Source of the DNA: Azolla caroliniana
Taxonomy: Eukaryota; Plantae; Polypodiophyta
Length of the DNA: 64,000 nucleotides
Direction of reading: 5' to 3'
Assembly (NCBI GenBank): GCA_043228905.1
Contig: JBHGNT010000017.1
Span: 8,866,001 to 8,930,000, forward strand
Shown: in pieces, positions 9,320 through 53,690 of the stretch
How positions within the stretch are numbered: the first letter of the stretch is position 1
Layout of the letters: each line of letters opens with the position of its first letter
Notes under the pieces: model-generated
The model's input: the letters and a program-made list of their open reading frames with translations, nothing else
What the model was told of the DNA's origin: nothing
Databases searched by the model: none
Position numbers and translations under genes: made by a program

Positions 9320-9769
9320 GGGCTCCAGTATGTCCTCTGTTTCGGTGGTGGAGGAGAGTTTGATGTGCCCGTGGTAGCTTCTGATGTTTGCCTAAGCACC
9401 TGTATCCGGCTCTGTGCGCTAACTACTTTGTGTTCATGAAATGAGAGAGACTATGTTATGCGAAGGTTTTGTGTTCCCATCTAGGCCGCCTTTTCTCGAT
9501 TCCCGTGCATGCACGTCATGTGCTTTTAATAGTGGCTGTGTGACGCATGGTGTGCTTTAAATGACTTACGTCACACCGTTTCGAGGTGTCCGTTCACTTT
9601 TTAATGGCCTGCATTTTTTTGCTTGCATGGTGGCTTTACTCCACGTCTTTATTCCTCACCCCTGCATGATGGGTTTTTTTTTCTTTTTTCTTTAACGTCC
9701 TTGTATCCGGCAATACCGGATCCGTTGTATGTCCCTCCTCTTGGTTGTCGGCTATCCGCTTGCCATTCC

Positions 9770-13881: not shown

Positions 13882-13964
13882 ACTTTGAATCCTTCCGGTC
13901 CAGAACCCCGGTGGTTCCACCTCACGATCCGCGCGTAGTGACGGATCTTCACGACATAATTAAG

Positions 13965-13982
13965 TGGTGAACCCGACGTGAA
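13965..13982 (+). promoter_or_regulatory. Primer-binding site complementary to tRNA-Trp
   Basis: TGGTGAACCCGACGTGAA is the reverse complement of the plant cytosolic tRNA-Trp 3' end (...UUCACGUCGGGUUCACCA, recalled). It lies 8 nt after the LTR. Confidence 0.8.
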
Positions 13983-14017
13983 AGAGGCGGTAGGAAGGAT
14001 CAAGTCGAGATTAATAC

Positions 14018-19200: not shown

Positions 19201-19407
19201 TATGGACAAAAGCCGATTATGCCCATCGAAAGGACGATCGCCTCATGGGTAGCGATACCGTGGGAGAACGAGATGAGCCGAGAAGAGTTATTAGCCGCGC
19301 GAATAAGGCAACTTGAAAGAAGACCTGAAGATTTAGAAAAAGCGCGAAATATGATGAAGGCAGCCCGAGTAAAGAACAAAGTTCGGTTCGACAACACGAA
19401 TCGACTT
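16219..19407 (+). pseudogene. Element A ORF2: RT-RNaseH-integrase in the -1 frame, with in-frame stops
   Basis: YSNRWFTVPKKNG, LPQGATNS, PFLDD, TVDMSPTGIG, HRG...CETC, DRGE, ERGHGP. Confidence 0.92.
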
Positions 19408-19777
19408 TGTTGTATGTATGGCTGGACTAGCCGCAACACAGGTGTCTATCCGACACTTCTCCAAAGGGTGGTAGGGATAGGATGTTAATACACGCGTATG
19501 ATAATTACACTTAAGCACAGACGAAGACAAGATTAATCAGCATAAGCAAAACTATATTAATTCTTCGCGCTTTCATTACAAAACATCGGATCCTTTTATA
19601 GGCATCCGGCCAGATTACAATCGGTGCTCGGTAGGCAACCGTTAACCGAAACCGAATCGGTTCGGATCCGGATCGGTTACAACTACCGGATCCGTCCCTC
19701 CTAATAATTCTATTCCTATTTCTATATTTATCCGATCCGACCTTGCTTTCCCATTTGCCTTCTCTGACCGGTCAACA
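19408..19777 (-). repeat. P2 3' LTR
   Basis: TGTTG...CAACA, identical to 29134-29503. Confidence 0.97.
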
Positions 19778-19827
19778 CATGGCACGCCCGTGGGAAAGTG
19801 CATTGCACTTCGAACCCACAGCCGGCT

Positions 19828-22692
19828 TCAGTCTTCCTCCAACTTGTCAGGCAAACTCCGCTCCGAGGTTTCAAGTGTTGTTTTGCCTGTGCCGTCTCCG
19901 ACGTCCGATTGGATTGGCTGCCTTTTCGCATCTTGCTGCTCCGACTCTGCTTGTACCGGTGGTACCGGTGTTTCTTCTGTATCCTGTCCGGGTCTGTCCT
20001 GCTCCACCTCCGTTCCGTTCCCGGTATCGCTCTCTCCGGTTTCCACTGGTTGTGTCCTTTCCTCCCCGGATTCGGTACTTCTCTGTCTCCACTCTGCATC
20101 ATCCCCGGCATCAACCTGCTCTTGCTCCGGAAGTTCTTCCTCGGGTAATTCTTGTCGGGGTGCGTCGTTGTCGGTTGGGTTCTCTTCAGCCGATCGCTCG
20201 CCCTCACTGATGGAGATCGGCGTTGTGCGTCCCTCGGCTTCCTGTCGCACTCGGTCCTTCTCGTACCCTTCCAATTCCAGTTGGGTTTCGAGCTGCCCGT
20301 CATCCAACCTCTCTACTAACCCTCGGATTTCCTTGAGATGCTCTTCTGCTAGGGCATAGAAATCCTCCGACAATTCTTCCCGGATGTTGACGATACTTTC
20401 TTCGTCCATTTTATAGAACCCATCTCCGTTTTTCTTCCGATTTTCTGCATCAGCTCGGAGTATCTGCAGTTCAGCTGCCTGTTGTGCCCATTCCTTCCAG
20501 AGTTTCTCCGTGCTTTCATTTATGCTGGCCTGAGCTCGGGTACTCCAGCTTGACATGATGAACTTAATTCGGTCAACCCCTGCTTTAGCCTGTTCCGAAG
20601 CTGCTTGTTTTTCCTTCCTTATCCGTTTGATGATGTCGGCCATTAACTGAGCTTGAGTTTCAGAGTCGACTTTTTGCTTGTCACAGGTACTCCGCCATTT
20701 GTTGATTTCGAAAGTCGACTTCACTTTTTCCTCGTTCCAACTCTTTGTCAGCTCCCCTACTTTCTGCCGAAGTACTTCCATCTCTTTTCTTTGTTCCGAC
20801 GTCAAGGTCTTCTCCACCGATACTTCCTCCCTTGCTTTGGACAATTCCAAGCGGTTTTCCTTGAGCTGCTCTTTCAGCTTCTCTATCTGTCGGTCGTACG
20901 TTGCTGCCTGATTCTTGATGTCCGACGTGGCCTGTTTATAATCCTTACATAGTCGGTCGAATTCCTCCGTCTTCTGTTTTAGGCGTCGGTTCGCCTGATC
21001 TCGCAACCGATCATCCCGGTCCTTCTGTTGTCGGAGTTCCTCTCGCAACCGCTCGATTTCTTGCTCCATTCGTCGGCGCAGCCTATTTTTTTCCTTTTGC
21101 AGTGTCCCGTTTTCTTCTTGTAGTCGGTCATTGGTGGCTTTGCTTCGGCGAAGGCCTTCCTCCATTCGCCGTCTGTCGTCTTCTACCAACTTCCGCTGTT
21201 CTCTTTCGTTATCTCTCAATGCCTCCTGAGCCTGTAATTCTTCTTTCAAAGTTGCTATTAACTTCTCGGTCTCAGGGCCGGTTTGCAAGGCCTTCTCCGT
21301 TTCTGGTTCGGCTTGCTTTTCTGATGTCCCGACCGGCTCGGTGCCATCTTGCGCTTGTCGGCTGCCTTCTTTTGCCTGTGCTAGCTCTTCTTGCAGCCCA
21401 TGTAATTGTGCCCGGAGCATGACCATATCTTTAGTCGTCGTCCTAGTTACTTGTTCCCTTTGCTCCTCCTCTTTCTCCATCTGGTCTGCCACTCCCGACA
21501 ACTGCCCTGACACCCACCTTAGCCATTGTGCCTTTGTTCTGCCTTCGTTGGTGTCAGCAGGCGTACCTAGCTCCGACTGTTTTTCCGGCTGTTTCTCCGG
21601 CCTCTTCTCTTGTTCCGGCGCTTGTTCCTTTCTTTGTTCCTCGAACTCCGCTGCCGTCGGTTCCGGTACTGCCGTCTCTGGTGCAGACGGACCTTCATCC
21701 TGTGTCGCTTCTGTTCCGGTTACTGGAGGCGGTTCTTTTGCCCTTTGCTGAGTTCCGTCCGCTGTTGGGGTCGGTCTTGTCGCTCGTTTCTCCTTTCCTT
21801 GCCTGGGTGGTAGTATTAACCTTGGTTCGGATGAGTCTTCCTCTGTTTCAGCGTCCTCCGTCGGTGCCACTATTGGTTCCTTTACTGGTACCGGTTCCGA
21901 TTCGAGCGTTACTGGTTCCGTGTCGGTTTGCCTCTTGCTAGTCTTCTTTGCCAGCTTCTCTTTGCCTTTTTCCGCCTTTTTCTTCTTCATTGTCGGTTGC
22001 TGTTGCTGTTTCTGTGGCTGCCGTGATGGGCCTTCGTCCCGTTGCTGTCGGGATGAGTCTTCTTCCCGCGGCGCTTCTTCTTTCTGTGTCCATCCTGGGG
22101 TGTGTTTCTCTAGTATTCGTCGGCGCTTCATGGTTTGCTTCGGGGTAGTCTCCTGCCGACTTCTTTGCTTGTGCTTGATGGGGGACACCGGTGGGACCAA
22201 CACTGTTAACCATTGGGATATTCCGGCCCATGGCTTCTTCCCTTCCACCAAGTGCTTTATCGCCTCTTTCAGTCCTTCGGTGATGAAGTGGAGCCAGTCC
22301 ACCTGCAGGCCTTCGAATGTCGCGATGACGATCGCTGCTCGGTATTTGGCTATGGCTGCCGGACGAGGGTTCACGAACCCGTACTCCATCAGGGCGCGGG
22401 CCACCTCTCCGAACAGCAGGTTTTCTCCGCCCTGTGTGCGATACGCCTTGCTGCTAAGGGAATATTCGCCGAAATACTCGAAGAATATTTGGCTCGAGGG
22501 TAGCTCTATTGTTTGAAGTCCTCCCTCCGAAATCCCTGTGAGCGCTTGTACCGCTCCTTCAGTGACCTCTGCTAAGTCCACCGCTGTTGCCGCCTGCTCT
22601 GGTTCCTTGTGTGGTGGAGCGTCAGCGACCCGCAGCAGCCCTCCTAATCCGTTCTCTGTCAGCCATTGTCGCGCTCCGTCCGACAGTGCCAT
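19828..22692 (-). CDS. P2 extra ORF (about 954 aa from MALSDG; open to 22896): globular N-terminal domain, acidic linker, long coiled coil, acidic tail
   Basis: Open 1022-codon frame. Start chosen by homology to P1 MALYET. TATATAAA lies about 140 bp upstream (22828-22836). Confidence 0.85.
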   Translation of the reverse strand: MALSDGARQWLTENGLGGLLRVADAPPHKEPEQAATAVDLAEVTEGAVQALTGISEGGLQTIELPSSQIFFEYFGEYSLSSKAYRTQGGENLLFGEVARALMEYGFVNPRPAAIAKYRAAIVIATFEGLQVDWLHFITEGLKEAIKHLVEGKKPWAGISQWLTVLVPPVSPIKHKQRSRQETTPKQTMKRRRILEKHTPGWTQKEEAPREEDSSRQQRDEGPSRQPQKQQQQPTMKKKKAEKGKEKLAKKTSKRQTDTEPVTLESEPVPVKEPIVAPTEDAETEEDSSEPRLILPPRQGKEKRATRPTPTADGTQQRAKEPPPVTGTEATQDEGPSAPETAVPEPTAAEFEEQRKEQAPEQEKRPEKQPEKQSELGTPADTNEGRTKAQWLRWVSGQLSGVADQMEKEEEQREQVTRTTTKDMVMLRAQLHGLQEELAQAKEGSRQAQDGTEPVGTSEKQAEPETEKALQTGPETEKLIATLKEELQAQEALRDNEREQRKLVEDDRRRMEEGLRRSKATNDRLQEENGTLQKEKNRLRRRMEQEIERLREELRQQKDRDDRLRDQANRRLKQKTEEFDRLCKDYKQATSDIKNQAATYDRQIEKLKEQLKENRLELSKAREEVSVEKTLTSEQRKEMEVLRQKVGELTKSWNEEKVKSTFEINKWRSTCDKQKVDSETQAQLMADIIKRIRKEKQAASEQAKAGVDRIKFIMSSWSTRAQASINESTEKLWKEWAQQAAELQILRADAENRKKNGDGFYKMDEESIVNIREELSEDFYALAEEHLKEIRGLVERLDDGQLETQLELEGYEKDRVRQEAEGRTTPISISEGERSAEENPTDNDAPRQELPEEELPEQEQVDAGDDAEWRQRSTESGEERTQPVETGESDTGNGTEVEQDRPGQDTEETPVPPVQAESEQQDAKRQPIQSDVGDGTGKTTLETSERSLPDKLEED

Positions 22693-23324
22693 CGCTTCTT
22701 CTTCGTCTGCTGCTGCCTGTGGTCTGAGGTCGGGGTGTAGGTGTTCTGCGCGTCGGATCTTGCTGTCTTGAGCCTGCGTTTGCTTGTGGGAAAATTCGTA
22801 AAAAGTGAACCCTTCCCCGGTTCTTCCTTTATATAGTGGCGTTTCCCTCGAGCCGCCTTTTCCTGTTTTTCGCGCGTCCCCTGCCATAATTAGCATGTCA
22901 CTCTTTAATTTTCGACGGCTACACGTGTTCTGCCATAATTAGCATGTAACTATTTAATTCTGACGGCTGCACGTGTTCTGCCTATTTTTGGCGCCTGCGC
23001 ATGCTGTGTCATGAATAGTATGTCTGTCCTTTGCTGCCGCGTGTCATGCTTGCGTTTCTTTGCCGCGTGTGTCGAATCTCCTACGTGTCTGTCATTATGA
23101 CTCCTTAATTGACGCGCATTTTAAATCCTGTACCTCGGCCCCCCACGTTCTGTGCTTTAAATAGCTCGTGCACCCGTCTGACGGTTGTAACTACCTCCTT
23201 CATCATTACCATGATTTTTCTTGATCTTCTTGACCGTAGCACCACGTCATCATTTCTTTTTTTCTTTTTTTATTTTATTTTTTTTTTATTTTTTTTTATT
23301 TTTTATTTTTTTACATATGCCGCA

Positions 23325-26300
23325 TCATTGTTCGGTTCCCCCCGATGTGTTCGGGTCGGTGCGCACTGTTGTCGGTTCCTCGTCGTTGTTACGCGTCGGT
23401 GTCGGTTCCTCGCCATTCGGGTTTTCCGGGTCTTGCTTGAAGGGGTTAGCTGGCATGTGCCCCTTATACGGTTTTAGGCGAAAACCATTTGCCCATTTGC
23501 CCACAACTTCTCCTGACAACGTCCCGAGCTGGTAAGACCCATTGTACTCCTTTGTGATCCAGAATGGTCCGGTCCACCGAAATCGCAATTTCCCTGGCAT
23601 GCTCCCCATCCTTGTCTGGAACAGTAATACCGGTTTCCCGATCTCGAATTCCTTTTCGTTACCGCGCCGGTGTCGGTCTACAAAGGCTTTCCTCCTCCTT
23701 TGCTCTAGTTCTAGCTGTAGCAGGCTGGCTATTCGATTTTCTTCCAGTTCTAACAGCATCTTCAGCCGGATTCGTTCGGATTCCTTCTCGCTTAACCGCT
23801 CCTTAACCTGTATTCTTAAGCTAGGAATTTGGAATTCTACTGGCATGACTGCTTCCAAGCCGAATGCCAGTCGGAACGGGGTCGTCCGGATGCTAGTCTT
23901 GTACGCCGTTCGGTACGCCCACAGCACGCTCTGCAACTTCGTGTCCCAGTCGGTCCGGTTCTCATTGACAATTTTTCTAAGGATGTTCTGTAGCGTCTTA
24001 TTCGTTGATTCCGCTAATCCGTTGGCTTGAGGGTAGTAGGGAGTGCTTCGTTTGTGTACTACCGCATAGAATGATGTCAAACTTTCCACCACCTGCCCGA
24101 GAAAATGTCCTCCCTGGTCACTGATCAGCTCAATCGGGCATCCGTACCGACACCATATGCATTCATATAAAAATTTGGCCGTGGACGCCGCCGTGTTGTC
24201 CCGTAGTGCCTTTGCTTCTACCCATTTGGTGCAGTAGTCGGTAGCCACTATTATATACCGATTTCCGGTTCGCATTGCCGGTGGCTTGAAGGGGCCGACA
24301 AAGTCCAAGCCCCACTTTTGGAATGGTTCTAATGGCAAGACCGGGTGATGTGGCATCCGGGCCTGCTCCGTGGGTTGGCCCAGTCGTTGACACAGGTCGC
24401 ATTCCCTGCTATACTTAACGGCATCTCTCATGGTAGTCGGCCACCATAGTCCGCTCTGCCATATCTTCCGGGCTGTTGTTTCGCCGGCATAATGCCCGCC
24501 TGCAATTCCACAGTGGGCTTCCCTCAGGATCAGATCCTTTTCATCGCTCCGCACTGCTCGCCTCCATACGCCATCTGCCCCCTTGTGATAGAGGGTGTCT
24601 CCTACCAAGCAGAAATGTCTGCTCCGTACTGCCATCCTCTTCCGTTCGTCTCGGTCCAAGTTTTCCGGGGGAACTCCGGTGCTCAGGAACTGATGCATTT
24701 CGGTTAACCATTTGTCTTCGTCCGCTACTGTGGTCTCCGTTACCGGTGCCGTCGTGACCTTAAACAGCTCGGCGTCGGGAAATTCATCCTGTACGCCGTC
24801 CCCTGATTCTCCGGATTCTAGTCTGCTCAGGTAGTCTGCTACCGCATGCTGCACCCCGGGTCGGTGGAAAATGTCGAATTCGAATTCCTGTAATAGCAGC
24901 GTCCACCGTGCGAGTTTTCCTGTCAGGGCTGCCTTTGAGACTAGGTAGAGTAGTGCCGAGTGGTCAACGTGGAAGGAGAACTTTCGTCCGAGCAGATAGT
25001 GCCTGTACTTTGTGACGCTGTACACCATTCCTAATGCCTCTCGTTCCGTTGTAGAGTAGTTCTGTTCGGCTTTCGAGAGTTTCCTGCTTGCGTAGTACAC
25101 CGGCCGATACCATTTCGGTTCCGTGAGTTGCATCAAAACACTGCCGATTGCTACGTCCGACGCGTCGACGAAGACGTGAAAGCTTTTACTCCAGTCCGGC
25201 GGCTGCACCACCGGAGCTTGTGACAGCATGACCTTCAACGCTTGGTAGGCTGCCTCCTCCGTTTCTGTCCATTGGAAAGGTACTCTATGTACAGCAGCGT
25301 GCAATGGTGTCGCAAAGTCGGCAAGGTGCCGTATCATCCGACTATGCCACCTTATTTGACCAAGGAATCGGCTTAAAGCTTTTGCGCTATTCGGTGCCGG
25401 TGCGTCGAGAATTGCTTTTACCTTATCCGGATCTACCGCGATTCCTTCTCGACTCACCACGTGGCCTAACAAATTGCCGCTTGCGACTCCAAAGACGCAC
25501 TTAGCCGGGTTCAGACTTAATCGGTACTCGCGGCACTTTTCTAAGCATAGTCGTAGGTGATCGAAATGCTCTCCGTGTCGGCTGTAGACGGCGAAATCGT
25601 CTAGGAAGACCTGCATAAAACCGGGAATAAAATCACCGAAGATTTCCATAATTATCCTTTGAAATGTTGCAGGGGCTGTCTTTAATCCGAACATCATCAC
25701 GACCGCGACGAACACTCCCCATTCCGTCACGAACGCTGTTTTTTCTTGGTCGGCCGGGTTCATTCGGATTTGGTTGTAGCCGCTGAATCCGTCCAGGAAG
25801 CTGTAAACTTCGTGGCCGGCCACCGCATCTAGCACTCCGTCCGTGAATGGTAGTGGAAAAGTGTCGGTCACTGTCGCGGCATTTAGTTTCCTGTAGTCCA
25901 CACATACCCGGATTTTGCCGTTCTTTTTCGGGACCACCACTATCGGGCTTAGCCAGGTTGCCTGCTTGACTGGTCGGATAAATCCGACCCGGAGAAGCTT
26001 GTCTATTTCCTCCTTCACCTTTGCCGCATAGTTTGGATTCATCCGGTACCGACGTTGAGCGATGGGTTTCGCGTCAGTACTTAGATGAATTTGGTGCTGG
26101 TAGGGTTGGGGGTCCAACCCTCGCATGTCTTCGTATGACCATGCGAACACGTCCTTGAATTCCGTTAACAGTGCTACCATTGCCTGTTTTTCCTCCTTTG
26201 GCAATTCCTTCGCGACTTTTACCGGTCGGGGTTGTTCTGTTGTGCCGAGGTCCACCTCTTCCAGCTGAGATGCTTTCACCCTTTGGGATATCGTCATTTC

Positions 26301-29081
26301 TCTTTCTAGGGCTTCCTGTGCTTGGCGTAGTTCCCGGATCGCCACTTTGTCCGGCTCGTCCGGCATTGTGATGTACGGCTCTACCGCTGCCGTGATATCC
26401 ACCTCAAAAAGTGGGACGATCTGTGGGTGTTCCTCGAGGTACCGATCAACTTCCTCATCCGGTAAGCCCTCCAACATGTTGATGCTTTCGGCATATAAAG
26501 GGGTTGCCTCCTTGCTAGTGAGCACCCGTGGTTGCGTGGCTACCCGTACCTTTGTTTTCCCTCGTCGGAACGTGATCATATTCTTTTGCCAGTTTTGCTT
26601 AATATGCGCCGTTCGCAGCCATGGTCGTCCTAACAGTAGGGGATATGCGCCTTGTACATTCAGCTCTAGTACCACGGCCGATATTCGGAATACGTGGCCT
26701 CCTATTGTCACTTCCAAGTCCCGGATAAGACCAGTTGGTCGGACTGAGCTTGTATCCGCCATGCGTAACCAGAAGGGGCATGGTTCCCACTCTTGGATGC
26801 CTAGGTCGTCGCATGTCTGTCGACTAATGACGTTCACCCCGGAGCCTCCGTCAATAATTGTTCCTGGAATCTCCTTTCCTTTGACGATTGTCGTGATTGC
26901 TGGGCTACTTGTATCAACCACCGCTGGGCCTTCCTCCGGGTTGGAGAAAAATGCCGGTGCCGGCGTCGGCGTCGGTTTGCTCACGGCGGCTTGTAAGTCT
27001 GCTGTGAACCGCGGCACCAACTGCAGTAACCGTGCCAACGGCAGCACGATCTGACAATCTTGTAGTGCTTGCCATGTCGGGTTTTCTCCTGGCTGTACGA
27101 TTTCCTCCTCCCTTGGCATATTTTGGTTTCTTACTTCCGCCGCACCTTGTTCGTTGGCTTCTTTGATCCATTGTGCCGCTTGTTTTCTGATTGCTTCCTG
27201 GGCTTCCCATTCGGCGGCTTTCCCCTTCGACCGCGTGGTAACCTGCTGTACTTCGGCTGTCACCATGTTGACTGCTGGCTGCTTGTCGGCTGTTTTGCTT
27301 GGGCATTGATTACTGTAATGCCCTTCTTTTCGGCAGTAATAACAGTACACCCTGTGCGTGTTGCTGGATTCTCCTTTTTCCCATGTTTGGGGAAGGGGCA
27401 TTCCCCGGCGGTTGTCCTCGGTTTTTCGGTTCTCCGGTGCCGCGACTGGTTTGTCATTCCTTGTTGCCTCCCGACGCTCCTCTCTACGGAAGAATCCACG
27501 CCTTTGGTTCCGTCGGAAATTCCGGTTCCCTGGCCGCCTTTCTTCTCTGCGTCGCTCATATTCCGGGGATTCGTCTCGGTCATACCGGTCCCGGGGGTAG
27601 CTATCCCTTCGGTTCTCCTCTCGGTCGTACCGGTCCCGGGGGTAGCTATCCCTTCGGTTCTCCTCTCGGTCATAGCTGTCGCGTCTTCTATCGGGGTATC
27701 TGTCGCCGCGTTCTCGTCGGTAGCGGTCGTCCCTCCGGAATCGATCCTCTTCCGGGTCCCGATTGCGCGGTTCTATGTGTCGGACCGGTGCCGCTTGTCG
27801 AGTTAACAGGTTATACTCGCATTGGTTCGTTGTGTGGGCGCGAGAATTGCATATCATGCACTGTGCGCGCAGGGTGCAGTCAACGGTCGAGTGCCCCGAA
27901 TTTAGGCATGTTGTGCATTGTAGGGCTTGTCGGAACCGGAGGTCCTCCTCCTTCGGAAGCGCCTGGTGTAACGCCCCCATCGGCAAGAAGGGGCTCGTGT
28001 TGTCCATTTCCAGGACCCGATCAATGACTTGGTCCATTGTGCTGGTGCTGAAATCGATGATTCCACACATCGCTCGAAGTGGGTCTTTTAACGCAGCCAA
28101 AAAGACTGCCTTGGCCTCCTCTTCGGGTGGTGCTCTTGCTAATTGACTGTGCAAGGTCTGGAAACGAATGATAAATTGTGGGACCGTCTCGTTTTCTCCC
28201 TGCCGAGTGGTGTAGAATTGTCCGACCAATTCCCTTTGTTCCACTCGTCTATGAAACAAGCGTAAAAACTGGGTTTTCAATGCCTCGAACGTGGCGAAGC
28301 TGCCTGGTAAGTGCTTGTCGTGCCACCGGGCCGCCGGTCCTTCTAATGTCATCCCGAATTCGGCGACTTTGGATCGGTCGGCCTCGGGCTCCGTTAGTCT
28401 CTGGGACACGTGGTTGGCTTCCCATGTTCGCAGGAATGCATACACATGTGCCTCTCCGTCGGGCTCATCCCTATACTTTGGGTACGGATACGGCATCGTG
28501 TCGTCCCACTGATTCTCCTGCGCTGGTTCCTCCGATGTCGGTCTCCGCTCCTGCGGTTCCTCCGCAGGTGGTGTTGGTATCCGCTCCTGCGGTTCCTCCG
28601 CGGGTGGTGTTGATAACCGCTCCTGCGGTTCCTCCGCGGGTGGTGTTGGTATCCGCTCCTCCCTCCTCGGCGATTGCCAGTCACCGAACTCCAGAGTTAG
28701 TTCCTCCTCTGGCTCCGATGTTGCTGAGTGATCCGACTCAAAGGGGTTGTTCCCGTGGCTGCTTTTATAGCGGGATCCCACGCTTTCCCCGCTATCCGAA
28801 TCCGCCTCTAATGTTGCAAATGCCGCCGCGTCCCCGTCGCCGCCAGCGAGAGTCTGTAGTAGTGTCTCCGCTTCTTGGAGGCTGGTTATGCTACTGCCTT
28901 CGTCGGAAGCTTGTAGAACCTGGAACTGCAGTGCGTTTTCTGCGATTTGCCGAAGCGTTGTTGAGAATGACCGATCGCTCCGGATCTCGTCGACGGCTTG
29001 CTGCAGGGCTTCCCGTCGTCGCTGCCGTTCGGCGTGGCGTCTCCCTCTTTCGGTGATGTGGTCGTTATTTTGTCTAGACAT
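23325..29081 (-). CDS. P2 Gag-Pol polyprotein, single frame (gag, zinc knuckles, PR, RT, RH, IN; no chromodomain)
   Basis: 1946-codon frame, likely starting at MSRQNNDH after the PBS. Motifs CTTCLNSGHSTVDC, CYYCRKEGHYSNQC, IIDGGSGVN, VFLDD, VDASD, HCGIAGGH...CDLC, SDQGGHF. Confidence 0.96.
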   Translation of the reverse strand: MSRQNNDHITERGRRHAERQRRREALQQAVDEIRSDRSFSTTLRQIAENALQFQVLQASDEGSSITSLQEAETLLQTLAGGDGDAAAFATLEADSDSGESVGSRYKSSHGNNPFESDHSATSEPEEELTLEFGDWQSPRREERIPTPPAEEPQERLSTPPAEEPQERIPTPPAEEPQERRPTSEEPAQENQWDDTMPYPYPKYRDEPDGEAHVYAFLRTWEANHVSQRLTEPEADRSKVAEFGMTLEGPAARWHDKHLPGSFATFEALKTQFLRLFHRRVEQRELVGQFYTTRQGENETVPQFIIRFQTLHSQLARAPPEEEAKAVFLAALKDPLRAMCGIIDFSTSTMDQVIDRVLEMDNTSPFLPMGALHQALPKEEDLRFRQALQCTTCLNSGHSTVDCTLRAQCMICNSRAHTTNQCEYNLLTRQAAPVRHIEPRNRDPEEDRFRRDDRYRRERGDRYPDRRRDSYDREENRRDSYPRDRYDREENRRDSYPRDRYDRDESPEYERRREERRPGNRNFRRNQRRGFFRREERREATRNDKPVAAPENRKTEDNRRGMPLPQTWEKGESSNTHRVYCYYCRKEGHYSNQCPSKTADKQPAVNMVTAEVQQVTTRSKGKAAEWEAQEAIRKQAAQWIKEANEQGAAEVRNQNMPREEEIVQPGENPTWQALQDCQIVLPLARLLQLVPRFTADLQAAVSKPTPTPAPAFFSNPEEGPAVVDTSSPAITTIVKGKEIPGTIIDGGSGVNVISRQTCDDLGIQEWEPCPFWLRMADTSSVRPTGLIRDLEVTIGGHVFRISAVVLELNVQGAYPLLLGRPWLRTAHIKQNWQKNMITFRRGKTKVRVATQPRVLTSKEATPLYAESINMLEGLPDEEVDRYLEEHPQIVPLFEVDITAAVEPYITMPDEPDKVAIRELRQAQEALEREMTISQRVKASQLEEVDLGTTEQPRPVKVAKELPKEEKQAMVALLTEFKDVFAWSYEDMRGLDPQPYQHQIHLSTDAKPIAQRRYRMNPNYAAKVKEEIDKLLRVGFIRPVKQATWLSPIVVVPKKNGKIRVCVDYRKLNAATVTDTFPLPFTDGVLDAVAGHEVYSFLDGFSGYNQIRMNPADQEKTAFVTEWGVFVAVVMMFGLKTAPATFQRIIMEIFGDFIPGFMQVFLDDFAVYSRHGEHFDHLRLCLEKCREYRLSLNPAKCVFGVASGNLLGHVVSREGIAVDPDKVKAILDAPAPNSAKALSRFLGQIRWHSRMIRHLADFATPLHAAVHRVPFQWTETEEAAYQALKVMLSQAPVVQPPDWSKSFHVFVDASDVAIGSVLMQLTEPKWYRPVYYASRKLSKAEQNYSTTEREALGMVYSVTKYRHYLLGRKFSFHVDHSALLYLVSKAALTGKLARWTLLLQEFEFDIFHRPGVQHAVADYLSRLESGESGDGVQDEFPDAELFKVTTAPVTETTVADEDKWLTEMHQFLSTGVPPENLDRDERKRMAVRSRHFCLVGDTLYHKGADGVWRRAVRSDEKDLILREAHCGIAGGHYAGETTARKIWQSGLWWPTTMRDAVKYSRECDLCQRLGQPTEQARMPHHPVLPLEPFQKWGLDFVGPFKPPAMRTGNRYIIVATDYCTKWVEAKALRDNTAASTAKFLYECIWCRYGCPIELISDQGGHFLGQVVESLTSFYAVVHKRSTPYYPQANGLAESTNKTLQNILRKIVNENRTDWDTKLQSVLWAYRTAYKTSIRTTPFRLAFGLEAVMPVEFQIPSLRIQVKERLSEKESERIRLKMLLELEENRIASLLQLELEQRRRKAFVDRHRRGNEKEFEIGKPVLLFQTRMGSMPGKLRFRWTGPFWITKEYNGSYQLGTLSGEVVGKWANGFRLKPYKGHMPANPFKQDPENPNGEEPTPTRNNDEEPTTVRTDPNTSGGTEQ
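27580..27675 (-). repeat. 39-bp coding tandem repeat (YDREENRRDSYPRDR) in P2 gag
   Basis: About 2.5 copies seen directly. Confidence 0.8.
28545..28660 (-). repeat. 36-bp coding tandem repeat (TPPAEEPQERI x3) in P2 gag
   Basis: Seen in DNA and translation. Confidence 0.85.
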
Positions 29082-29117
29082 CCATCCCCCGGTTGTCCTC
29101 TGCACTCTGCAGGAATC

Positions 29118-29127
29118 GTGGTCGCCA
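29118..29127 (-). promoter_or_regulatory. P2 primer-binding site, probably tRNA-Arg
   Basis: TGGCGACCAC, 6 nt inside the 5' LTR. The homologous TGGTGACCAC in P1 is at 56665-56674. Confidence 0.75.
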
Positions 29128-29133
29128 AAATAG

Positions 29134-29503
29134 TGTTGTATGTATGGCTGGACTAGCCGCAACACAGGTGTCTATCCGACACTTCTCCAAAGGGTGGTAG
29201 GGATAGGATGTTAATACACGCGTATGATAATTACACTTAAGCACAGACGAAGACAAGATTAATCAGCATAAGCAAAACTATATTAATTCTTCGCGCTTTC
29301 ATTACAAAACATCGGATCCTTTTATAGGCATCCGGCCAGATTACAATCGGTGCTCGGTAGGCAACCGTTAACCGAAACCGAATCGGTTCGGATCCGGATC
29401 GGTTACAACTACCGGATCCGTCCCTCCTAATAATTCTATTCCTATTTCTATATTTATCCGATCCGACCTTGCTTTCCCATTTGCCTTCTCTGACCGGTCA
29501 ACA
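29134..29503 (-). repeat. P2 5' LTR
   Basis: Identical to 19408-19777. Confidence 0.97.
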
Positions 29504-29508
29504 GACTT

Positions 29509-29808
29509 CATTCCAAGAAGATTGAAGAAGGGGATTGGGTTTTGGTTTACGACAGCACCCTTGACAATCAACACAGTACAACAAGGAAGTTTGCAAGAAG
29601 ATGGTTCGGGCCATATGTGGTGACAAGTGCCAACGATAATGCCACATACCACCTTGCGGAACTAGACGGATCAAGGTTGGTCGTACCCATTGCGGGAAAA
29701 AGAGTAAAGATTTTCAAGAAAAGACAAGACAAGGATCCTGACCTCGATTACCTCGACGATAAACATAATAGGCCGTATGAAAATGAAGACATGGAGGAAT
29801 CTAATTGA
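29509..29808 (+). pseudogene. C-terminus of element A integrase (GPY motif)
   Basis: DWVLVYDSTLDNQHSTTRKFARRWFGPY matches the C-terminus of element C integrase. Confidence 0.9.
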
Positions 29809-29880: not shown

Positions 29881-30955
29881 TGTCGTGAAGATTTTCGGCA
29901 ATAGTGTGAAAATCCCATAAAACGTATGAAATCGAGTATGAATCACATAATACAATAATTGTGAAGATAACATTTTTAATATCTAAATACAAAATGATGG
30001 AGGTTTCGAATGCACTTTATTACACGAGAAATGGACAACTAAATGTCAAGATATGAGGGTATAAAGTTTGTGAAAAGAAAAGAGAAAATTCTGAGATATC
30101 CCACATAGGCACGACAAATACGGCTCTCATCATATATAAGGTGGAGCAAAAGATATTATCTTTGTGTCTATGTGTGGAGCATAGAGAGTTCAAGGTAACT
30201 TGAACTAAGAGTGGAGGTGGGCTAGCTACTCGTAAAGGGTTTTGGCCAACCAAAACCGGACCGGCGATGGAGACGGTGAACCGACGGCACCGGCATCCAG
30301 CAACGGCATCCGGCGAGGCACCAGTAACCGACGGCATCCGGCGACGGTACCCGGCGAGGCACCGGTATCCGGCGACTATATAAATAAATATATAAATATA
30401 TATACAAATATACATATACAAGGAGGGGAAGTAAGGATTCGAACCTTGCACCTCCGAGTTATGAGTCAATTGGCTTACCATTAAGCCATGCTATTTAGCT
30501 AAAATTATATTTCTATCATTGTACTTTTACATGTAAAATCTCATACGTGAGAGCTAAAATGAGTGACATGGTTATCATGCACCACATGTAATACATAAGC
30601 GCCAAATGGCAAAAATGCAATTTATGCATGTCTTGTACCCTCACATGCATCATATGCATGAGAGCATCTATAAAAGAAGGAAGGGGGAGGAGAAAAAACA
30701 CGGCTTTTTTTATGAAAATTAAGAGGAAGAAATTCGTTATCAAATTGATCGTGTAACTTGTTTCTTAAATCTAAAGTTAAAACTTCAATCAATCTCTCTC
30801 AATCGTGTGATCTCAACTTCTCTCTTTCCCAATCTATCTTAAGTACTTTCTCGCTAAAGCTTACGCCAAAGCTTGTACCGACTTTGAATCCTTCCGGTCC
30901 AGAACCCCGGCGGTTCCGCCTCACGATCCGCGCGTAGTGACGGATCTTCACGACA
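29881..30955 (+). repeat. Element A 3' LTR (1075 bp)
   Basis: TGTCGTGAAG...CTTCACGACA perfect 10-bp terminal inverted repeat. Preceded by GGTGGGGGTGGA. TATAAAAG near 30669. Confidence 0.92.
30435..30488 (-). promoter_or_regulatory. tRNA(Met)-like Pol III A-box/B-box module in the A LTR
   Basis: Minus strand reads TGGCTTAATGGTAAGCC...CTCATAA...GGTTCGAATCC. D-arm GGCTT/AAGCC pairs. No acceptor stem. Confidence 0.8.
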
Positions 30956-36418: not shown

Positions 36419-37635
36419 GATACAAGCTGTGGGTATGCAATATAAATAAGGAGGTTCAGAAAATACACAAGCAAAATGAATGCTTGAAATTTTGATTGTA
36501 TGAACTTTACCAAGAAAGCATCTAACGTCTTTACCCCTCTAGAAATATGAGATGTGATTTGAGATCCGATAACTATGGTAACACTATGGTGTTTTAAAAA
36601 CCATGGGGGAAAACATAGGTAAGATGTCTTTCTCGGATCTCTATCTTGAATAATCATGGAGGCTCCCCGAGGCTCAACCATTGTTCTAACATCAATGTAG
36701 TTTCCTAGTTAGCCTTATATTAGAATGTCAACCCAACATGTATTGATATGGTCGAGAAAGTGTATTACGTGAAAAAACAAGTGCACTCTCAAGTAATATT
36801 CTAGTCTTGTGAGTAACAAGCAAATGTTATGACCAAAACGATAAAATAAGGCATTACCCATTAGAATCAAGCAGTGATGAAAACAAGGGTCAAAAAACCC
36901 ATGTGTTACCTACTTAAAAAAAATGTCACAAATAAATGGATGGTGTGAGAGATGCACATATACATCCAAATATGGTGGTTGTAATTTGCACAATTATGAC
37001 ATAAGCCACAAATTGATACAAATGGTGGTGGTATTGTGCGCAAAGATGTAGTACTCAAATTTATGAGTAAAACAACAATAGGGGAACTCATATGATTTCA
37101 CTTGTGTTCTAAAGCTCATAATATGAGTTAAACCTAGAGGAGCTATTGGAAAATATCGTTCAAAAAACGTACGTAAATAATGTAGATGAACTTAAAATAA
37201 GGGCAAGAAAGAGCGTTAATTGTGGGTGGGTAAATGACAATTGCTAGAAAATTATACAAAAGTGAAACGAAAATTTGTATAATTAGAAATTAATTAGAAT
37301 AATAGGGTCAAAGCACACTATGGTGTACCAACTTTTGGCCAAAATTTTAGTACTAATTCGATGAGGAAAGAAAAATAATCCAATATTTGGGTTAAAAAAG
37401 TTGAGGTTGTTGGGTCACAGTCCTGGGTAATGTTGTACGGAAATCTTAACTGTAGAAGATCTCGAGTAGTCACTCAATTATGAATATAGTAAGTATGTCT
37501 CTCTCTCGATCTCTCTCTTGGCACATATGTTCATCTTGAACTGTCATTTAGTCTCTCTCTCTCCCTCTCTCTCTCTCTCTCCCTCCCTCCCTCTCTCCCT
37601 CTCTCCTTCCCCCTTCTACTCGCTGATTCCGCAGG

Positions 37636-37937
37636 TTCATACCTCCTCTCCCCCTCTCTGTCTCTCTTCTACCTTCTGTACAGGTCTCTGTAGACTCCAA
37701 GCGCGTCACTACTCGTCATTCGTACCTCCTCTCCCCCTCTCTGTCTCTCTTCCACCTTTTGCACAGGTCTCTGCAGACTCCAAGCGCGTCACTGCTCGTT
37801 GTTCGTACCTCCTCTCCCCCTCTCTGTCTCTCTTCCACCTTCTACACAGGTCTCTGCAGACTCCAAGCGCGTCACTGCTCATCGTTCGTACCTCCTCTCC
37901 TCCTCTCTGTCTCTCTTCCACCTTCTGCATAGGTCTT
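37636..37937 (+). repeat. 83-bp tandem repeat, about 3.6 copies, upstream of the transposon's second gene
   Basis: ACCTCCTCTCC recurs at 37641, 37724, 37807 and 37890. Confidence 0.9.
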
Positions 37938-39667
37938 TCAACCTCTCTAGGGCTAGTTGCGTTCTCTCTCCCTCAACTGACCTTGTTCTCCCTCACTGTT
38001 AGGTGTTCTGTGCTCACCGTGTCCTAACGACATCAACCTCTGCTCTGCTGGCTGGTTGTGTCCCCTCTGCTGGTTGTGACCTCTACTTTGCTCTACCTCC
38101 AGGTGTTCTCAAGTCATTGTGTTCCCTCTACCTAGTGTGTCTGTTTGCTTGCAACCTGTGATTCAAATGTGTCCCCTCTGCAAGGACTTCAGAAATGTAA
38201 TCGTGCTATCTGCAACCCTAACGACATCTGAAAAGGTAATCTTGCTTTAGGATTACCTTCACGTTCTGCTATATGTTAGGGTTTTGTTGTTGTTGTATGT
38301 GTTGTTCTCCCTTGATCATTTCAGACACTTGTACATGCATATGCTTGAAATTGAGAGTGTTTTACATGCATATGTCATTTATTGCATGATTTAGAATTTG
38401 GTACATGTTAACATATTGGAAGATGGTTCTATGATGGTACATTGCAATGATTTTCCATGGTTTCGCATGTATATGTTGTGTATCGGGAGTTGTGATTGAT
38501 GAAAAAAGACAGTTGTGATTGATCTATTGTTATTTACTATTGTTGTGTGTGTGAGGTGAAGAAGAGAGATAGGACTGAAATGACAAGGAAGACACCCACG
38601 AAGACGAAAATGGTCAAAGAAAATGTCAACACACCATGCAAGGAAAGAAAAAGGACCCCCATCAAAGAAAGTAAGATGACCCCCACTAGAGGGAGGTTTA
38701 AGTTGTCAACATCTCAGGGCAAGAAGATGTTCACAAACATCCTTCGAGGTAGAAAGTTAGGATAGGGATATTTCTTTCGTGCATGACCTAACACTTATGA
38801 AGATGTAGACATGTGGATGATCAAAACATGGGGCTCATCACAATCGGAGACAAGGAGAGGTTTTCACCTCACTCAATTGAAGAAGGATTATATCATTGAA
38901 CTAAAGTCACGATATGAACAAGTTTACGATACAAAACATATCCTAAACAATGAGGTAGGAATTGTTTTTGCACATGCATTTGCATATGAACTCCATGGTG
39001 GCATTGAAGTTGATTGGGAAGATTTTGCTCATCATCGATCATCACATTATAGAGGGTCCTCAAGTACCAACACTACTATGAAGTTTGAGGGTACCTCTCA
39101 CATTGAAATCCTAGCTAGGACATCTGTGTTGACTAAACTGATTGCAAAAGAAAGAGCTACACTGACAGAAAAGTATGAACAATGATTGTTGTGTTGCATA
39201 GCTTCCATGCAAACAAGAATGCAAGCGCTGCTCACCGATTTGGAAGAAGTTTCATCTAGTGAGATGGGGGCAGAGAAACAAATCACATCTATATCGAATA
39301 CATACGAATGGATAACAACAACAATCCAACATTCTGAAAGCGATGTGTTGAAAGAGGAGTTGAAGAAGGATCTGACAAATATGGGCACTCAACTAGGAAA
39401 ACAGAAGAAAGATCTGGAGACATGGAGGTCTTCTCGTTCTGAAATTGATGATAAGTTATCAGCCTTAAAAAGTCACTCTGAGAACCTGACATCTTTGATG
39501 AAGGGTCTAAAAGATAAAGGTTTAGATCCTCTATGGCCAGAAGTAGTTGAGCATCCCACTTGCAATGAAAGTACCATTACCAGAATTACTGTATCAAGGT
39601 AATGGTTTATATTTTTACAAGTTGACCTTCTATTGTATAAAATATCATCGTTGTCATGATATGGCAA

Positions 39668-39720
39668 GACTCGAACCCATGACCTTATGCTACATGGGTC
39701 GAGCTCTTACCATTAGACTA
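39668..39720 (-). promoter_or_regulatory. tRNA-like Pol III A-box/B-box module in the C2 LTR (second copy at 45641-45693)
   Basis: Minus strand reads TAGTCTAATGG ... GGTTCGAGTC, starts 43 nt apart. Confidence 0.72.
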
Positions 39721-40090
39721 TGAATTGCAATACATAGAATATTATTTTCCTTTATGTTTTATCATAGAAAATTGATGTATATTCCAGATCTCTCTCGAAC
39801 ATTCTAGAAGCTTCAGGATTATTGCTGAGAACACTATAAAAGAGGGCACTAGGCATTATGTTGAACCAAATTGGTTCATCGTCAGTCTTAAGCCTTTTAG
39901 CCACCATTGTATATTCTCTTCACATAATACATATCTCTTTCTTATCATCCCTCTCTCCCTCTCTCGATCTCTCTCTTTCTCTCCGTCTCGCTCACTTCTT
40001 CCTTCTCTCAAAGAAGTTCTACACCTCTCATAGTACTAATCCTTCGTTTAGTACTAATTCCTTCTCTGTCTTAGTACTGTTCCTGACAGT

Positions 40091-40102
40091 TTGAACCAAT
40101 TT
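40091..40102 (+). promoter_or_regulatory. Self-priming PBS (Tf1-type)
   Basis: TTGAACCAATTT is complementary to AAATTGGTTCAA in the LTR (45841-45852; 11 of 12 at 39868), about 33 nt downstream of TATAAA. No tRNA-type TGG. Confidence 0.8.
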
Positions 40103-40160
40103 TCCTAGCTTCTATCTCTCTCAGTTCCTACTAATCTCTTATTCCTCTTTTCTTTCATCC

Positions 40161-43100
40161 CATGGCCATTGTTAGCGCTGAAGAATATCAATCTATTTTC
40201 TCGGAATTTCAATGCTTGAAAGAGAAGTTCCATGCTTTGGAACAAGAAAACCAACGGTTGCTGGGGGATCTTCAGCAAATCTGCTTAGAAAAGTAGCAAA
40301 CGCAACAACAGCATGGGGAACTTGCGTTACGCGTGCAACAACTCGAAGCAACCATCATAGAGATGCAACAACAAGGGCCCGGAACACACAGGATTCATAA
40401 AGAACCAAAGATTGGCCTTCCCACGAAGTTCGATGGAACGCGATCGCAGTTTAGAGTTCCTTAACCAGGTATGATTAGTTATTCAAATGCATCCTTCCCG
40501 ATATCCCACCGATGCATCACGAGTGGGCTTAGTAGGCACTTTGTTAAGTGGCTCAGCATTGGCATGGTTCGCTCCACTATTAGAGAAGGAATCTCCGTTA
40601 CTCAACAATTTTGAAGAGTTTCTAGGTGAGTTTAAAGCATGTTTCGGAGATACTTACAGCATCAGGATCGCAATCAACAAAATTCGGCGATTACGCCAAG
40701 GTGACCGTCCAGCCTCTGCATACACTGCAGATTTTCGCCTACTCGCCGTCGATATCCCTTGGGATGATCAAGCGTTGATGGAGCAATTCCGTTATGGTTT
40801 ACGCAACGACGTCAAGGATTTACTCTTGACCTTCCCCGAAGAGCCAAAGTCCTTAATATAAGCAATCAGTCGCGCGGTGAGATGTGACAACCACCTCTTT
40901 GAGCGACATTCGGAACGACAGCTACAGATGCCGAGGGCAAGATCAGAGCCCACCTACGCCTCAGTGGTAGCAAGACCTTTTCCAAGGGAGTCATATAATG
41001 CGCCTCCAGCGAATACTCCGACTTCGATGGAGATTGACACTACACGTCGTCGAGGGCCATTATCCGAAGAAGAAAAGCAGCGACGCCGTACAAATCGACT
41101 ATGTCTTTACTGCGGTGGACCAGGACATATTGCAATAAATTGCCCCCATAGGCCAAGAAGACAGGTAAACCAAATAGTCGCTAGTTCTAATTGTACTAAA
41201 CCCGAGCCTATTTCAGTAGGGATATCTAATAGTCCTAATAGTACTAATAGCCTAGATCTAGCGAACAAATTTGATGTCCTTAGTCAGTTAGAAGAAGAGT
41301 TAAATGTCTAAGTCCCACCAAAATAGGAGCCGTTTGGTTGGACAACCCTAGATCTGTGCAGCCCATTAGTGGTTCCATTCCCTCTAAGCAAGTTAGTGAT
41401 GTGTTCATAGCCCAAGTAATAGGTAGTACTAAAAGTACCCCTCCAGTACATGTCCTAGCACTCCTAGATTCTGGAGCTAACTCTTGCTTTATGGATAAGA
41501 AATTTGCTCAAGCTCATAAGATATCCCTAAGAAAACTCTAGTGTCCAGCCTCTGTAGTAGTCATTGTTGGGAGACAGGTCCCTCCGGATGGGAAGGGAGA
41601 AGAACAGTGCCGACAAGCAAACTTGGCCGAGGCCGAAACGGTACGAGGAGCACCCGGCTACGGAGAGCCGGATGATACAGGCCCGGTATGAACCGGATGA
41701 GGAGTACCCGGCTACGGAGAGCCGAATGATACAGGCCCGGTATGAACAGGATGAGGAGTACCCGGCTACGGAGAGCCGGATGGTGCAGACCTGGTATGAA
41801 CCGGATGAGGAGTACCCGGCTACGGAGAGCCGGATGGTGCAGACCCGGTATGAACCGGAGGAAGAGACATATTCGTAAATATGTTTCTGAGAGCCAATTG
41901 TGGCTATATTTGTAAATAGCCGAAAAGTCATATTAGTATAAATATGACTTAGGGCAAAACTAATTATGTGTTTTTTGTTGTTACTTTTCTTGTTGGTGCA
42001 AGAAGAAGAGAGAGCGCAAAACTGTACAGAGAGAGAGAGAGAACGAGGCTGTTGCCTTTGTTGTAACCGTCGCCTGTGGCGAAGAGCGTGAGTCCGAGAT
42101 CGTTGCCTCCGAGAACTCACTGTTTTGTACATTCATACATAGTGACAGTTTGCAGCCTGTGGGCTGCCGTGGTTTTTCCTCCAGTTTGGGGTTTTCCACG
42201 TTAACCTCCTGTGTAGAGTGTGTGTATCTTCCTCTCCTTTGTATCGTGTTGTATTTCCCGTTTTTCTGTGTATGAAAAGAATCTCGGTTGTGGCCGAGCA
42301 TTGCACATAAGGAACCTTGAGTTCTCGTCAGTCATTGATGGACGTCCCATTGCTTCCGGAAATATCATAGAAGAGTTAGAGCCCATTAATATTGTCCTAG
42401 ATAACTTAGCATGTGTAGTATCATTTAATATTATTAGTATCCCAGAACATTCCATAGTTTTAGGATTACCGTGGTTCGAGTTACATAACCCAGACATAGA
42501 TTGGAGAACAAGAGAAATCCGGTGTCGACAAACCCAAGGGTCAACTCAGAAGATGGCAACCATTTCACTACGTCAGTTGCGTAAAGAAGGGCGCAAGGAG
42601 GAAATGTTCCTCTTTGCAATATCAGTAAACCCCTCCAGCACCACTAAAGAAGAATCCACCGTTCAACTTCCCGAGAAGTATCGTCATTACGCCGATGTGT
42701 TCGATAAAGTACAAGCCAACACACTTCCTCATCATTGACCGTACGATTGCCCCATCGATTTACAACTAGGAAAAGAGCCGCCATGGGGGCCGATCTACAA
42801 TTTGTCACCAACCGAGCTGGAAGTCCTTCGGGCCTATATAGAGGAGAATTTGGAAAATGGTTTCATTCGACATTCGAAATCTCCAGCCGGCGCGCCCATT
42901 TTCTTCGTCAAGAAAAAGGATGGATTGCTTCGTCTCGTTGTAGATTACCGTGGCTTTTCCCCTTATCTCAAGTCTTTTAGAACGGATCAATGGTGCCAAG
43001 TTCTTCACGAAGATCGACTTACGGGGAGCATATAACCTCATTCGGATCCGACCAGGAGACGAATGGAAGACCGCGTATCGCACCAGATATGGGCACTTCG

Positions 43101-48600: not shown

Positions 48601-49416
48601 CCCCTCCGATGATGAACTGCCACTCAGTAGTCTACTACCTCGTGGCTTTACGATGAAGAAGAAGAAGGGTGTGAAATCTGAGAAGAGTGTAACAAAAAAT
48701 AGGCGCATTACAAGATCTAGAAAAAACTAAAAACAAAGTTGTTTGTATTTAGATCGTTGTTTGTAATTGATTACCATATGAGCAAGTTTTTGATTAACTG
48801 CTTCTTGACACTGTTTTGGTTTACTTATCCTGAATTTGAACTTGATACTATTTGAGTACTCATCTTAGTGACTAATTTAGTACCAACTTGATATGAAATG
48901 TACTAACTTTGATACATCTATTTGTAAGAATGTGAATTTATTTGAGGTTTCATCTTAGGAAGAATGTCACTTGTTATGCACACATATGACATTGACGCTT
49001 GTTATGGACACATATGACACTCCTGTCTTGGATATGTCTAGGTTAGTAAACACTTAGCACAATATTAGTACTATATTTTAATGCATATGAACATGGTATG
49101 TATACTTGAACGAACCATTGTATTAGTACTAGCAATTAACATGTTCAATCTGTTCCCTCATCTAGTCAACCACACCCTCATGAGTGTACCACACACTAGA
49201 AACATGTGTGGAATGAACACAGTTTTAGTACTAACCAAAGATATTATTCACCATAAATTGTATGTAAAAGATACATACATATCTAAACAAAACACCAAGA
49301 TTAAGAGATGTGTCATTGCAAACTCATAAGAAAACCAAAGATGATATATTTCCATTCATTTGTAGGCCAGAGTTTAGAAGACATGCGAATGTTACATATG
49401 AACAGTGCTTGCCATC

Positions 49417-52400: not shown

Positions 52401-52643
52401 TTCCTCTGAAACACATTGGTCCCTAAACTTAATATTCTGCATGTCTTCATTCAAAAGTTGATGGTGCAACACTCTAGAGATAATATCCCTACGATCCTCC
52501 AAGCCAAATATCTCAATTACTTCTAGTAAATAACGGACTATGTGAAGAACCACCCGTCTCTTGCTCCTCTCAAACATTGATTTGCTAAGGGACACCTCGT
52601 TCTCCTCATCAATGACCATTGTCACTCTCATATATTCCAACAC
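49417..52643 (-). pseudogene. Sola2-like DDD/E transposase, spliced and decayed
   Basis: FWAKNTRVSP, FRGLKPFFV...RNTCCCVYH, VIDFAVNY, WFDGAASQFK (about 50790-50820), YFGSGHGKGEHDGAG, LSCFCSMC. Confidence 0.82.
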
Positions 52644-53596: not shown

Positions 53597-53690
53597 GCGC
53601 TGTGAAGACCTGAGTTGGAAGGCGGAAGACCAGAGCGCGCTGTGAAGACCTGAGTTGGAAGGCGGAAGACCAGAGCGCGCTGTGAAGACC
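53597..53690. repeat. 40-bp tandem repeat upstream of the transposase
   Basis: GCGCTGTGAAGACC recurs at 53597, 53637 and 53677. Confidence 0.85.

Follow-up and report, generated by a model that had tools for sequence, protein, structure and literature searches.

LTRs from two distant lineages of Gypsy retrotransposons in the Azolla caroliniana DNA analysed here carry, in U3 and antisense to the element, a pair of A- and B-box promoter motifs with the geometry of a tRNA gene, and this module is a feature of the LTR families, not a stray SINE. The pairs had been noticed in an earlier sequence-only reading, and the observation itself is confirmed as real. The module probably recruits the tRNA transcription machinery. 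The explanation that we favour, tentatively and with a probability of roughly 0.4, is an outward-facing Pol III promoter that would bind TFIIIC and TFIIIB and keep the LTR promoter open, acting mainly at the level of the DNA.

Both strands of the 64-kb window (the whole stretch of DNA that was analysed) were scanned for exact B boxes, GGTTCGANTC, which gave five sites, at 6781+, 30445-, 39677-, 45650- and 57112-. An A box (TRGYNNARTGG, 0-1 mismatch) starts exactly 43 nt upstream of the B box in 5/5, and the five pairs with this spacing that had been reported are thereby all recovered. Block-wise dinucleotide shuffles (n=300) yielded a mean of 0.03 such pairs per window and a maximum of 1. A profile search with filters off returned only the same five modules, at 44.8-57.5 bits, and the next best match scored 3.8 bits. 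All modules sit in the 5' part of a Gypsy LTR and are antisense to their own element (5/5), at A-box-to-TATA distances of 181, 115, 258 and 275 nt, where the TATA boxes are putative. Because the two LTRs of C2 belong to one element, and the B and solo LTRs are 78% identical, the five sites represent three module types (Phygy-A, Phygy-B and Tcn1), not five, in two lineages. The modules and their hosts are as follows.

30436-30488, minus strand: module Phygy-A, with the A box at 30478-30488 and the B box at 30436-30445, starts 43 nt apart
29881-30955, plus strand: 3' LTR of the Phygy-like element A, with TG..CA and 12-bp inverted ends, the PPT just upstream and an NCGN 4-mer after it; inner blocks are CCGG-rich (about 30255-30375) and CATGCA-rich (about 30575-30660), with TATA at 30669
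13882-29805, plus strand: element A, with a 5' LTR remnant at 13882-13956 and the PBS at 13965-13982; its gag-pol contains stop codons and is interrupted by a Tat element at 19408-29503
6738-6790, plus strand: module Phygy-B of the solo LTR, with a T4 run 23 nt past the B box and a hairpin z of -3.5
6200-6890, minus strand: Phygy-type solo LTR within a Copia RT gene, with a 4-bp TSD
57103-57155, minus strand: module Phygy-B of the B LTR, with a T4 run 22 nt past the B box
56828-57447, plus strand: B LTR, Phygy type, truncated, with a CCGG block 72% like that of the Copia LTR, joined to a Phygy gag-pol via a deletion
39668-39720, minus strand: module Tcn1 of the C2 5' LTR, with the B box 16 nt from the LTR end and a hairpin z of -5.4
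45641-45693, minus strand: module Tcn1 of the C2 3' LTR, immediately 3' of the PPT
39652-46059, plus strand: element C2, a Tcn1-like chromovirus with gag/pol on the plus strand, a 5-bp TSD and a chromodomain integrase
39652-40088 and 45625-46059: the C2 LTRs, identical in 423/437 columns
39868-39878: self-priming-like 11-nt match of C2, 33 nt after the TATA box, to the PBS region at 40092-40102

The window consists of LTR retrotransposons nested in one another, and gag, RT, RNase H and integrase are present between the LTRs. The A LTR (29881-30955) is preceded by pol and a PPT, and the named relatives of the RT of element A are from Adiantum, Riccia and Calypogeia (46-72% identity), with other matches up to 91%, which agrees with a seed-free plant as host. 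The PBS of the Phygy-like elements presumably matches tRNA-Trp. The hosts A, B and solo have LTRs that start with TGTCG, 4-bp NCGN target sites and no chromodomain (Pfam). Phygy is characterised by 4-bp NCGN targets, absence of a chromodomain and a non-Met tRNA PBS (PMC6317226); A, B and solo agree with it in target site, chromodomain and PBS and were assigned to it by that description. C2 has the chromodomain integrase and the self-priming PBS by which the same account describes Tcn1; it places plant Tcn1 close to fungal chromoviruses and finds Phygy and Tcn1 together in Physcomitrella (PMC6317226). Phygy and Tcn1 RTs in the window are 23-29% identical (about 27% as a single figure), and the claim of unrelated lineages holds for these two distant groups, not for the four lineages originally counted. 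The RT of A is 78% identical to that of B and 82% to that of element D, whose LTR has no module. In the profile search the module was also absent from at least 3/6 Phygy-type LTRs of the window (2306-3084, 54784-56069 and 59626-60257), and from its C1, Copia and Tat LTRs, and it is therefore dispensable; the share of Phygy LTRs with a module (3/6) applies to the window LTRs alone. A box-independent, protein-first search for relatives of the Phygy LTRs gave 0 in viral contigs and 0 in GTDB.

Several other features of the nest were recorded. The A LTR has two TATA-like sites (30133, 5' of the module, and 30669) and may be a compound LTR; it shares a layout of early TATA-like site, CCGG repeats and CATGCA-rich block with the 1.28-kb solo LTR at 54784-56069, and the module is in A only. 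Clusters of CATGCA/TGCATG palindromes with ACGTG cores lie between module and TATA in the Phygy LTRs (30575-30660, 6535-6600 and 57230-57380); we take the clusters to be RY-type elements, and ABA/ABI3-type control of these LTRs through them is possible. Phygy-type LTRs are inserted at NCGN 4-mers, often within LTRs or genes of other elements (2306-3084, 6200-6890 and 54784-56069), and the same was seen in the metagenome loci L131, L147, L150, L153 and L154. The Tat element at 19408-29503 is very young, with 370-bp LTRs that are 100% identical and an intact gag-pol of 1948 codons; a second ORF at 19828-22938 (1036 codons) has no Pfam match, and decayed relatives lie at 8700-9700 and 1-1999. A decayed DNA-transposon-like element with subterminal repeats (37300-54000) lies inside C1 and hosts C2, and has intron-split transposase-like pieces at 49400-52600. 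Locus L151 holds tandem Tcn1-like elements with one common LTR (pol, PPT, LTR, PBS, gag), and a Phygy-like RT (P0113) filed under a Kitasatospora genome is probably plant contamination.

The modules are not tRNA genes. ARAGORN found no tRNA gene in the window or in the metagenome module loci, and Rfam gave no match across the window at E<=5, so that the tRNA search proposed with the sequence-only reading came back empty. Looser patterns gave at least 120 and 10 viral loci, which served as tRNA controls only (62 with 43-nt spacing, 56 distinct). In the modules 7-43% of acceptor-stem cells and 28-50% of anticodon-stem cells were paired, against 91% and 89% in the 56 phage tRNAs, and neither stem paired better than slid controls; the reported loss of the acceptor stem is thus borne out, and the cloverleaf with acceptor, D, anticodon and T stems is lacking. 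Since ARAGORN and Rfam were empty and acceptor and anticodon pairing stayed at the level of slid controls, what remains is promoter boxes in tRNA geometry without a tRNA. The boxes fit the A/B consensus of a type 2 Pol III promoter at a permitted spacing, for which the range in yeast is 32-93 bp (PMC12409998). The 43-nt spacing is fixed at all window sites but not throughout the families, as a large C2 subfamily has 44, with one extra base in the D-loop region; contigs showed loose ends at 39708 (81, 107, 29 and 9 contigs in four runs).

The strict module pattern matched nothing in viral contigs and nothing in GTDB genomes, and gave 29 matches in metagenome contigs. Eighteen of these resemble the window (1 Phygy-A, 11 Phygy-B and 6 Tcn1 type) and 11 are unlike it. 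The latter (L133, L135, L137, L139, L141, L142, L143, L149, L152, L156 and L159) show the same geometry in unrelated context, and we provisionally label them animal-type tRNA-SINE heads for their look and their lack of similarity to the window. In 16 of the 18 plant-like loci the B box is followed on its 3' side by an LTR start, in the same orientation and at the distance of the family (11-32 nt in Tcn1, 108-267 nt in Phygy-B, 650 nt in Phygy-A); the two exceptions are L148, with a break at the B box, and L157, where no LTR start is seen. Direction was anchored independently by pol and PPT in L136 and L151, and by PBS and gag in L145 and L150. L136 (pol, PPT, LTR), with an open pol frame of 914 codons, and L150 (LTR, PBS, gag) are intact relatives of the B LTR, and L132 is a homologue of the A LTR with the module. 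The antisense U3 placement described before consequently holds in all window copies and in 16/18 metagenome loci, and orientation is not random.

Assembled contigs from five coded organisms span the module. In the first three of the contig runs for the A LTR (organisms A, B, A and C), coverage of the module bins resembled that of the remaining U3; in run X1 the summed depth, which is not copy number, was about 300,000 in the module bins and 257,000-565,000 in the rest of U3. For the C2 LTR (organisms A, B, C and F), depth across the 28 bins peaked at the B box in three runs, and in the remaining run the B-box bin ranked among the highest. Of every 100 contigs at the A and C2 LTRs, no more than 2 run on into unlike sequence. 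Ordinary SINE insertions might be suspected, as the geometry is SINE-like and the same pattern also finds the 11 loci resembling animal-type SINE heads. Sporadic SINEs are, however, contradicted by the fixed LTR position, which is the same in both C2 LTRs and in the 16 loci, by the even contig coverage and by the few run-ons into unlike sequence; the modules lack a TSD, body and tail of their own and are not sporadic in occurrence. We consider this explanation exceedingly improbable.

The 18 scan loci were chosen by the box pattern, and therefore only unselected evidence counts for conservation. At A-box positions outside the search pattern, T8, R9 and Y11 were each kept in 17/18 loci and G10 in 12/18, and all four bases occur at N12. 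Among the variants listed for C2 contigs of four organisms (all rows but 12), there were 0 in the 10-nt B box, and the A box varied at N12, Y11 (T>C) and R9 (A>G) only, all within the consensus. Among the same variants, 0/15 strict box places varied as compared to 29/130 places of the U3 flank, 9 of them within the first 20 (Fisher p=0.03), the boxes being more conserved than the nearby flank; against a constraint on the boxes alone, the whole first 60 nt are conserved, with 3/32 places varying in the spacer and 0/16 at the LTR end. Among the variants listed for the A LTR (40 of 96 rows) there was none in the B box and one in the A box, A>G at R15, in 4 runs. Together these patterns suggest that box positions are kept while their neighbours vary. 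None of the sequence-level signs that the sequence-only reading had named as refuting it was seen.

The sequence-only reading overlooked that the modules fold as long, non-cloverleaf hairpins with compensatory changes and with a geometry particular to each family. Mean hairpin z was -3.6 in Tcn1 (n=8), -1.9 in Phygy-B (n=13) and -2.2 in Phygy-A, as compared to -0.8 in the animal-type heads used as control (n=11). The C2 hairpins (z -5.4 and -5.8) are the only such window within the C2 LTR, whereas further palindromic windows occur in the solo LTR (z -2.5 to -3.5). The Tcn1 hairpin holds the B box in its 3' arm, and 1/11 pairs is changed on both sides. The Phygy-B hairpin is an extended T-arm with the B-box core in the loop and the A box outside the stem. 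With L148 (broken at the B box) excluded, 94% of 156 Phygy-B stem cells are paired, against 23-55% in slid controls, and 3/13 pairs show two-sided changes, counts that related copies inflate. A T4 run lies 22-30 nt past the B box in 12/13 Phygy-B copies and within 30 nt of it in 0/2 Phygy-A copies; among Tcn1 copies it lies inside the LTR in 2/8 (L145 and L146, at the hairpin base) and in none of the other 6/8. A stable hairpin with covariation, as in the cassettes of foamy viruses, is thus present.

These hairpins could mean that the outward Pol III unit makes a hairpin RNA of 65-90 nt, antisense to U3, that serves as a small-RNA precursor or as a silencing decoy. Arguing for this are the z-scores, strong in C2/Tcn1 and weaker in Phygy-B relative to the animal-type heads, the pairs changed on both sides, the T4 runs of Phygy-B and of L145/L146, and the precedent of the U3 Pol III hairpin cassettes of foamy viruses (PMC3993851). 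On the other hand, the families differ in hairpin geometry, T4 is lacking within 30 nt in both Phygy-A copies and inside the LTR in most Tcn1 copies, and no strand preference is seen (10 G-U vs 7 A-C cells in the Phygy-B stem, and similar z-scores in the element-sense direction); the compensatory changes may moreover reflect few events on the tree. We regard such an RNA function, the main rival of the promoter explanation, as possible, though on balance improbable. Alternatively, a captured tRNA or SINE head may have been remodelled to a palindrome that acts as DNA or in genomic RNA, at the LTR end, in the PPT neighbourhood or as a dimeric factor site, without Pol III. Template-switch repair is able to produce compensatory changes without selection, which would suit this explanation, as would the Tcn1 B box being part of a stem so near the LTR end, the conserved spacer and the other palindromes in these LTRs. 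Against it, Phygy-B keeps the B-box core in a loop and the A box outside the stem, and the A-box changes obey the R/Y/N pattern of the Pol III consensus. We find it unlikely.

Under the outward-facing Pol III promoter that we prefer, the tRNA-derived A and B boxes, fixed near the outer LTR end and pointing away from the LTR TATA box, would act through TFIIIC binding to the B box, and the retained A box would position TFIIIB towards the Pol II promoter. Once bound, TFIIIC and TFIIIB would hold the Pol II promoter open against silent chromatin spreading from the flank. Pol III would run outward from the LTR, and would therefore neither collide with Pol II nor leave a sense tRNA-like cleavage target in genomic RNA. 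As the module is antisense it cannot make genomic RNA, and the element RNA would itself still be made by Pol II, in keeping with the position of the C2 self-primer match after the TATA box; any short antisense hairpin RNA would arise incidentally. Common to all three module types are the boxes, rather than one RNA, and the boxes persist though the 20 free spacer positions are only 17-39% identical across types, which agrees with the earlier statement that the sequence between the boxes is family-specific. No terminator is common to all families, and a DNA-level role is therefore favoured. The module lies between the flank, or the CCGG-rich block, and the promoter region, and barriers that depend on TFIIIC are well established for yeast and mammals (PMC12409998). 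As a caveat, a barrier does not require the conserved hairpins, which could account for some of the conservation.

A Pol III complex might instead dampen the adjoining LTR promoter and so curb transposition. In yeast, repression is known beside tRNA genes. Pol III complexes affect nearby Pol II transcription there (PMC4228148), but the families with the module are extremely abundant in the contig runs (thousands of contigs), unlike elements under a brake, and we judge this very unlikely. We give still less credence to the module as a landing pad for Pol III-targeting retroelements: such elements are well known (PMC5911963), yet the roughly 250 nt upstream of the A box are free of insertions in all 5 window copies, the largest insertion in 12 aligned loci (L136, L138, L147, L154 and L158 partly covered) was 13 nt, and Phygy targets NCGN sites, which were found at 5/8 solo-type Phygy starts. 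It is also conceivable, if doubtful, that shield and RNA go together, in that two unrelated autonomous lineages independently made tRNA heads into transcribed, outward Pol III units in U3 that shield against heterochromatin and whose hairpin RNAs tune host silencing.

How the module types arose is approached through the 20 free spacer positions, at which they are no more alike among themselves (17-39% identical) than they are to phage tRNAs or animal-type heads (28-38%). A permutation test on spacer and flanks for common ancestry of the types was not significant (p 0.07-0.30). The convergent capture proposed earlier is thus not established, as these identities fit separate captures and equally one old origin since saturated. 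The primer tRNA is rejected as the captured source, since neither a CCA end nor an acceptor stem lies at the distance required. The geometry would fit an element that inserted immediately 5' of a tRNA gene and whose LTR end then shifted outward. The Phygy-B LTRs (B, L136 and L150) and the Copia LTR have a CCGG-rich U3 block in common, at 72-81% identity (56870-57072 as compared to 8108-8248 and 2035-2175), and Phygy-B LTRs occur in forms with and without it. The presence of this block in both Gypsy and Copia LTRs suggests that U3 modules are exchanged between superfamilies; U3 pieces would thus move between them, which makes lateral spread plausible.

The closest known likeness is Helenus, a tRNA-type TRIMp3, in which LTR sequence is likewise derived from a tRNA, retaining its A and B boxes but not its function (PMC10886601). 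One Helenus family is known from a seed-free plant, the lycophyte Selaginella (Kojima 2024, PMC10886601), and the same account notes that "not a few" Repbase LTRs hold tRNA-like pieces, its analysis being confined to TRIMs. Helenus elements are non-coding and 311-1263 bp long, whereas the elements here code for gag-pol; Helenus-1_SMo and the wasp entries have the boxes in sense direction, as proposed driver of their own RNA, whereas ours are antisense; and the autonomous partners of Helenus are expected to use ordinary Pol II LTRs (PMC10886601). The modules therefore share tRNA-derived LTR boxes with Helenus/TRIMp3, but neither the short non-coding body nor the element-transcribing orientation, and look like a reversed Helenus head. 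The TRIMs Cassandra, present in land plants, and Ajax also have a Pol III promoter within their LTRs, but it is a 5S-derived type-1 promoter that drives the transcript of a non-autonomous element (PMC10886601, PMC12786077); among plant LTRs, otherwise transcribed by Pol II, Cassandra is singled out as the exception in a 2025 review (PMC12786077).

For autonomous retroelements, the miRNA cassettes in foamy-virus U3 and the BLV miRNA cluster are A/B-box Pol III hairpin units to which the modules can be compared (PMC3993851, PMC10236774), and the foamy-virus cassettes lie in U3 beside the Pol II promoter and are dispensable for replication in culture (PMC3993851). These are animal retroviruses, however, with demonstrated and terminator-bounded RNAs, and the accessible text of these accounts does not describe the viral units as tRNA-gene geometry pointing off the promoter (PMC3993851, PMC10236774). 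The tRNA-gene and ETC-site barriers of yeasts and mammals have A and B boxes at a chromatin border, of which the modules would be capable in principle, but these are host loci and not borne by retrotransposons (PMC12409998). For plants, a 2026 review states that no Pol III/TFIIIC barrier function is yet described (PMC13578239). The available portions of the Phygy and Tcn1 accounts do not mention tRNA-like or Pol III sequence in the LTRs (PMC6317226, PMC2864245), and that of an account of moss elements has no occurrence of "tRNA" or "SINE" (PMC7466625). In the literature outside most subscription journals and the Repbase reports, we found no description of antisense A/B boxes in LTRs of autonomous plant Gypsy elements; within that literature the novelty suggested earlier seems to hold for the antisense, coding case, and the Helenus and foamy-virus precedents had been overlooked.

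Tcn1-type chromoviruses are thought to enter heterochromatin and, in mosses, to be expressed nonetheless (PMC7466625). If the LTR edge carries a portable Pol III promoter, this would be a concrete answer to how expression within heterochromatin is achieved, and one that is testable by single-base changes. It would add coding elements, with the promoter in reverse orientation, to the tiny non-coding TRIMs as bearers of Pol III LTRs, and would imply very many extra TFIIIC-type sites in genomes that bear the module. The module would also offer a first means of studying how Pol III acts as a barrier in plants; and if shield and hairpin RNAs were indeed combined, it would be the first Pol III barrier in plants, spread by transposons at very high copy number.
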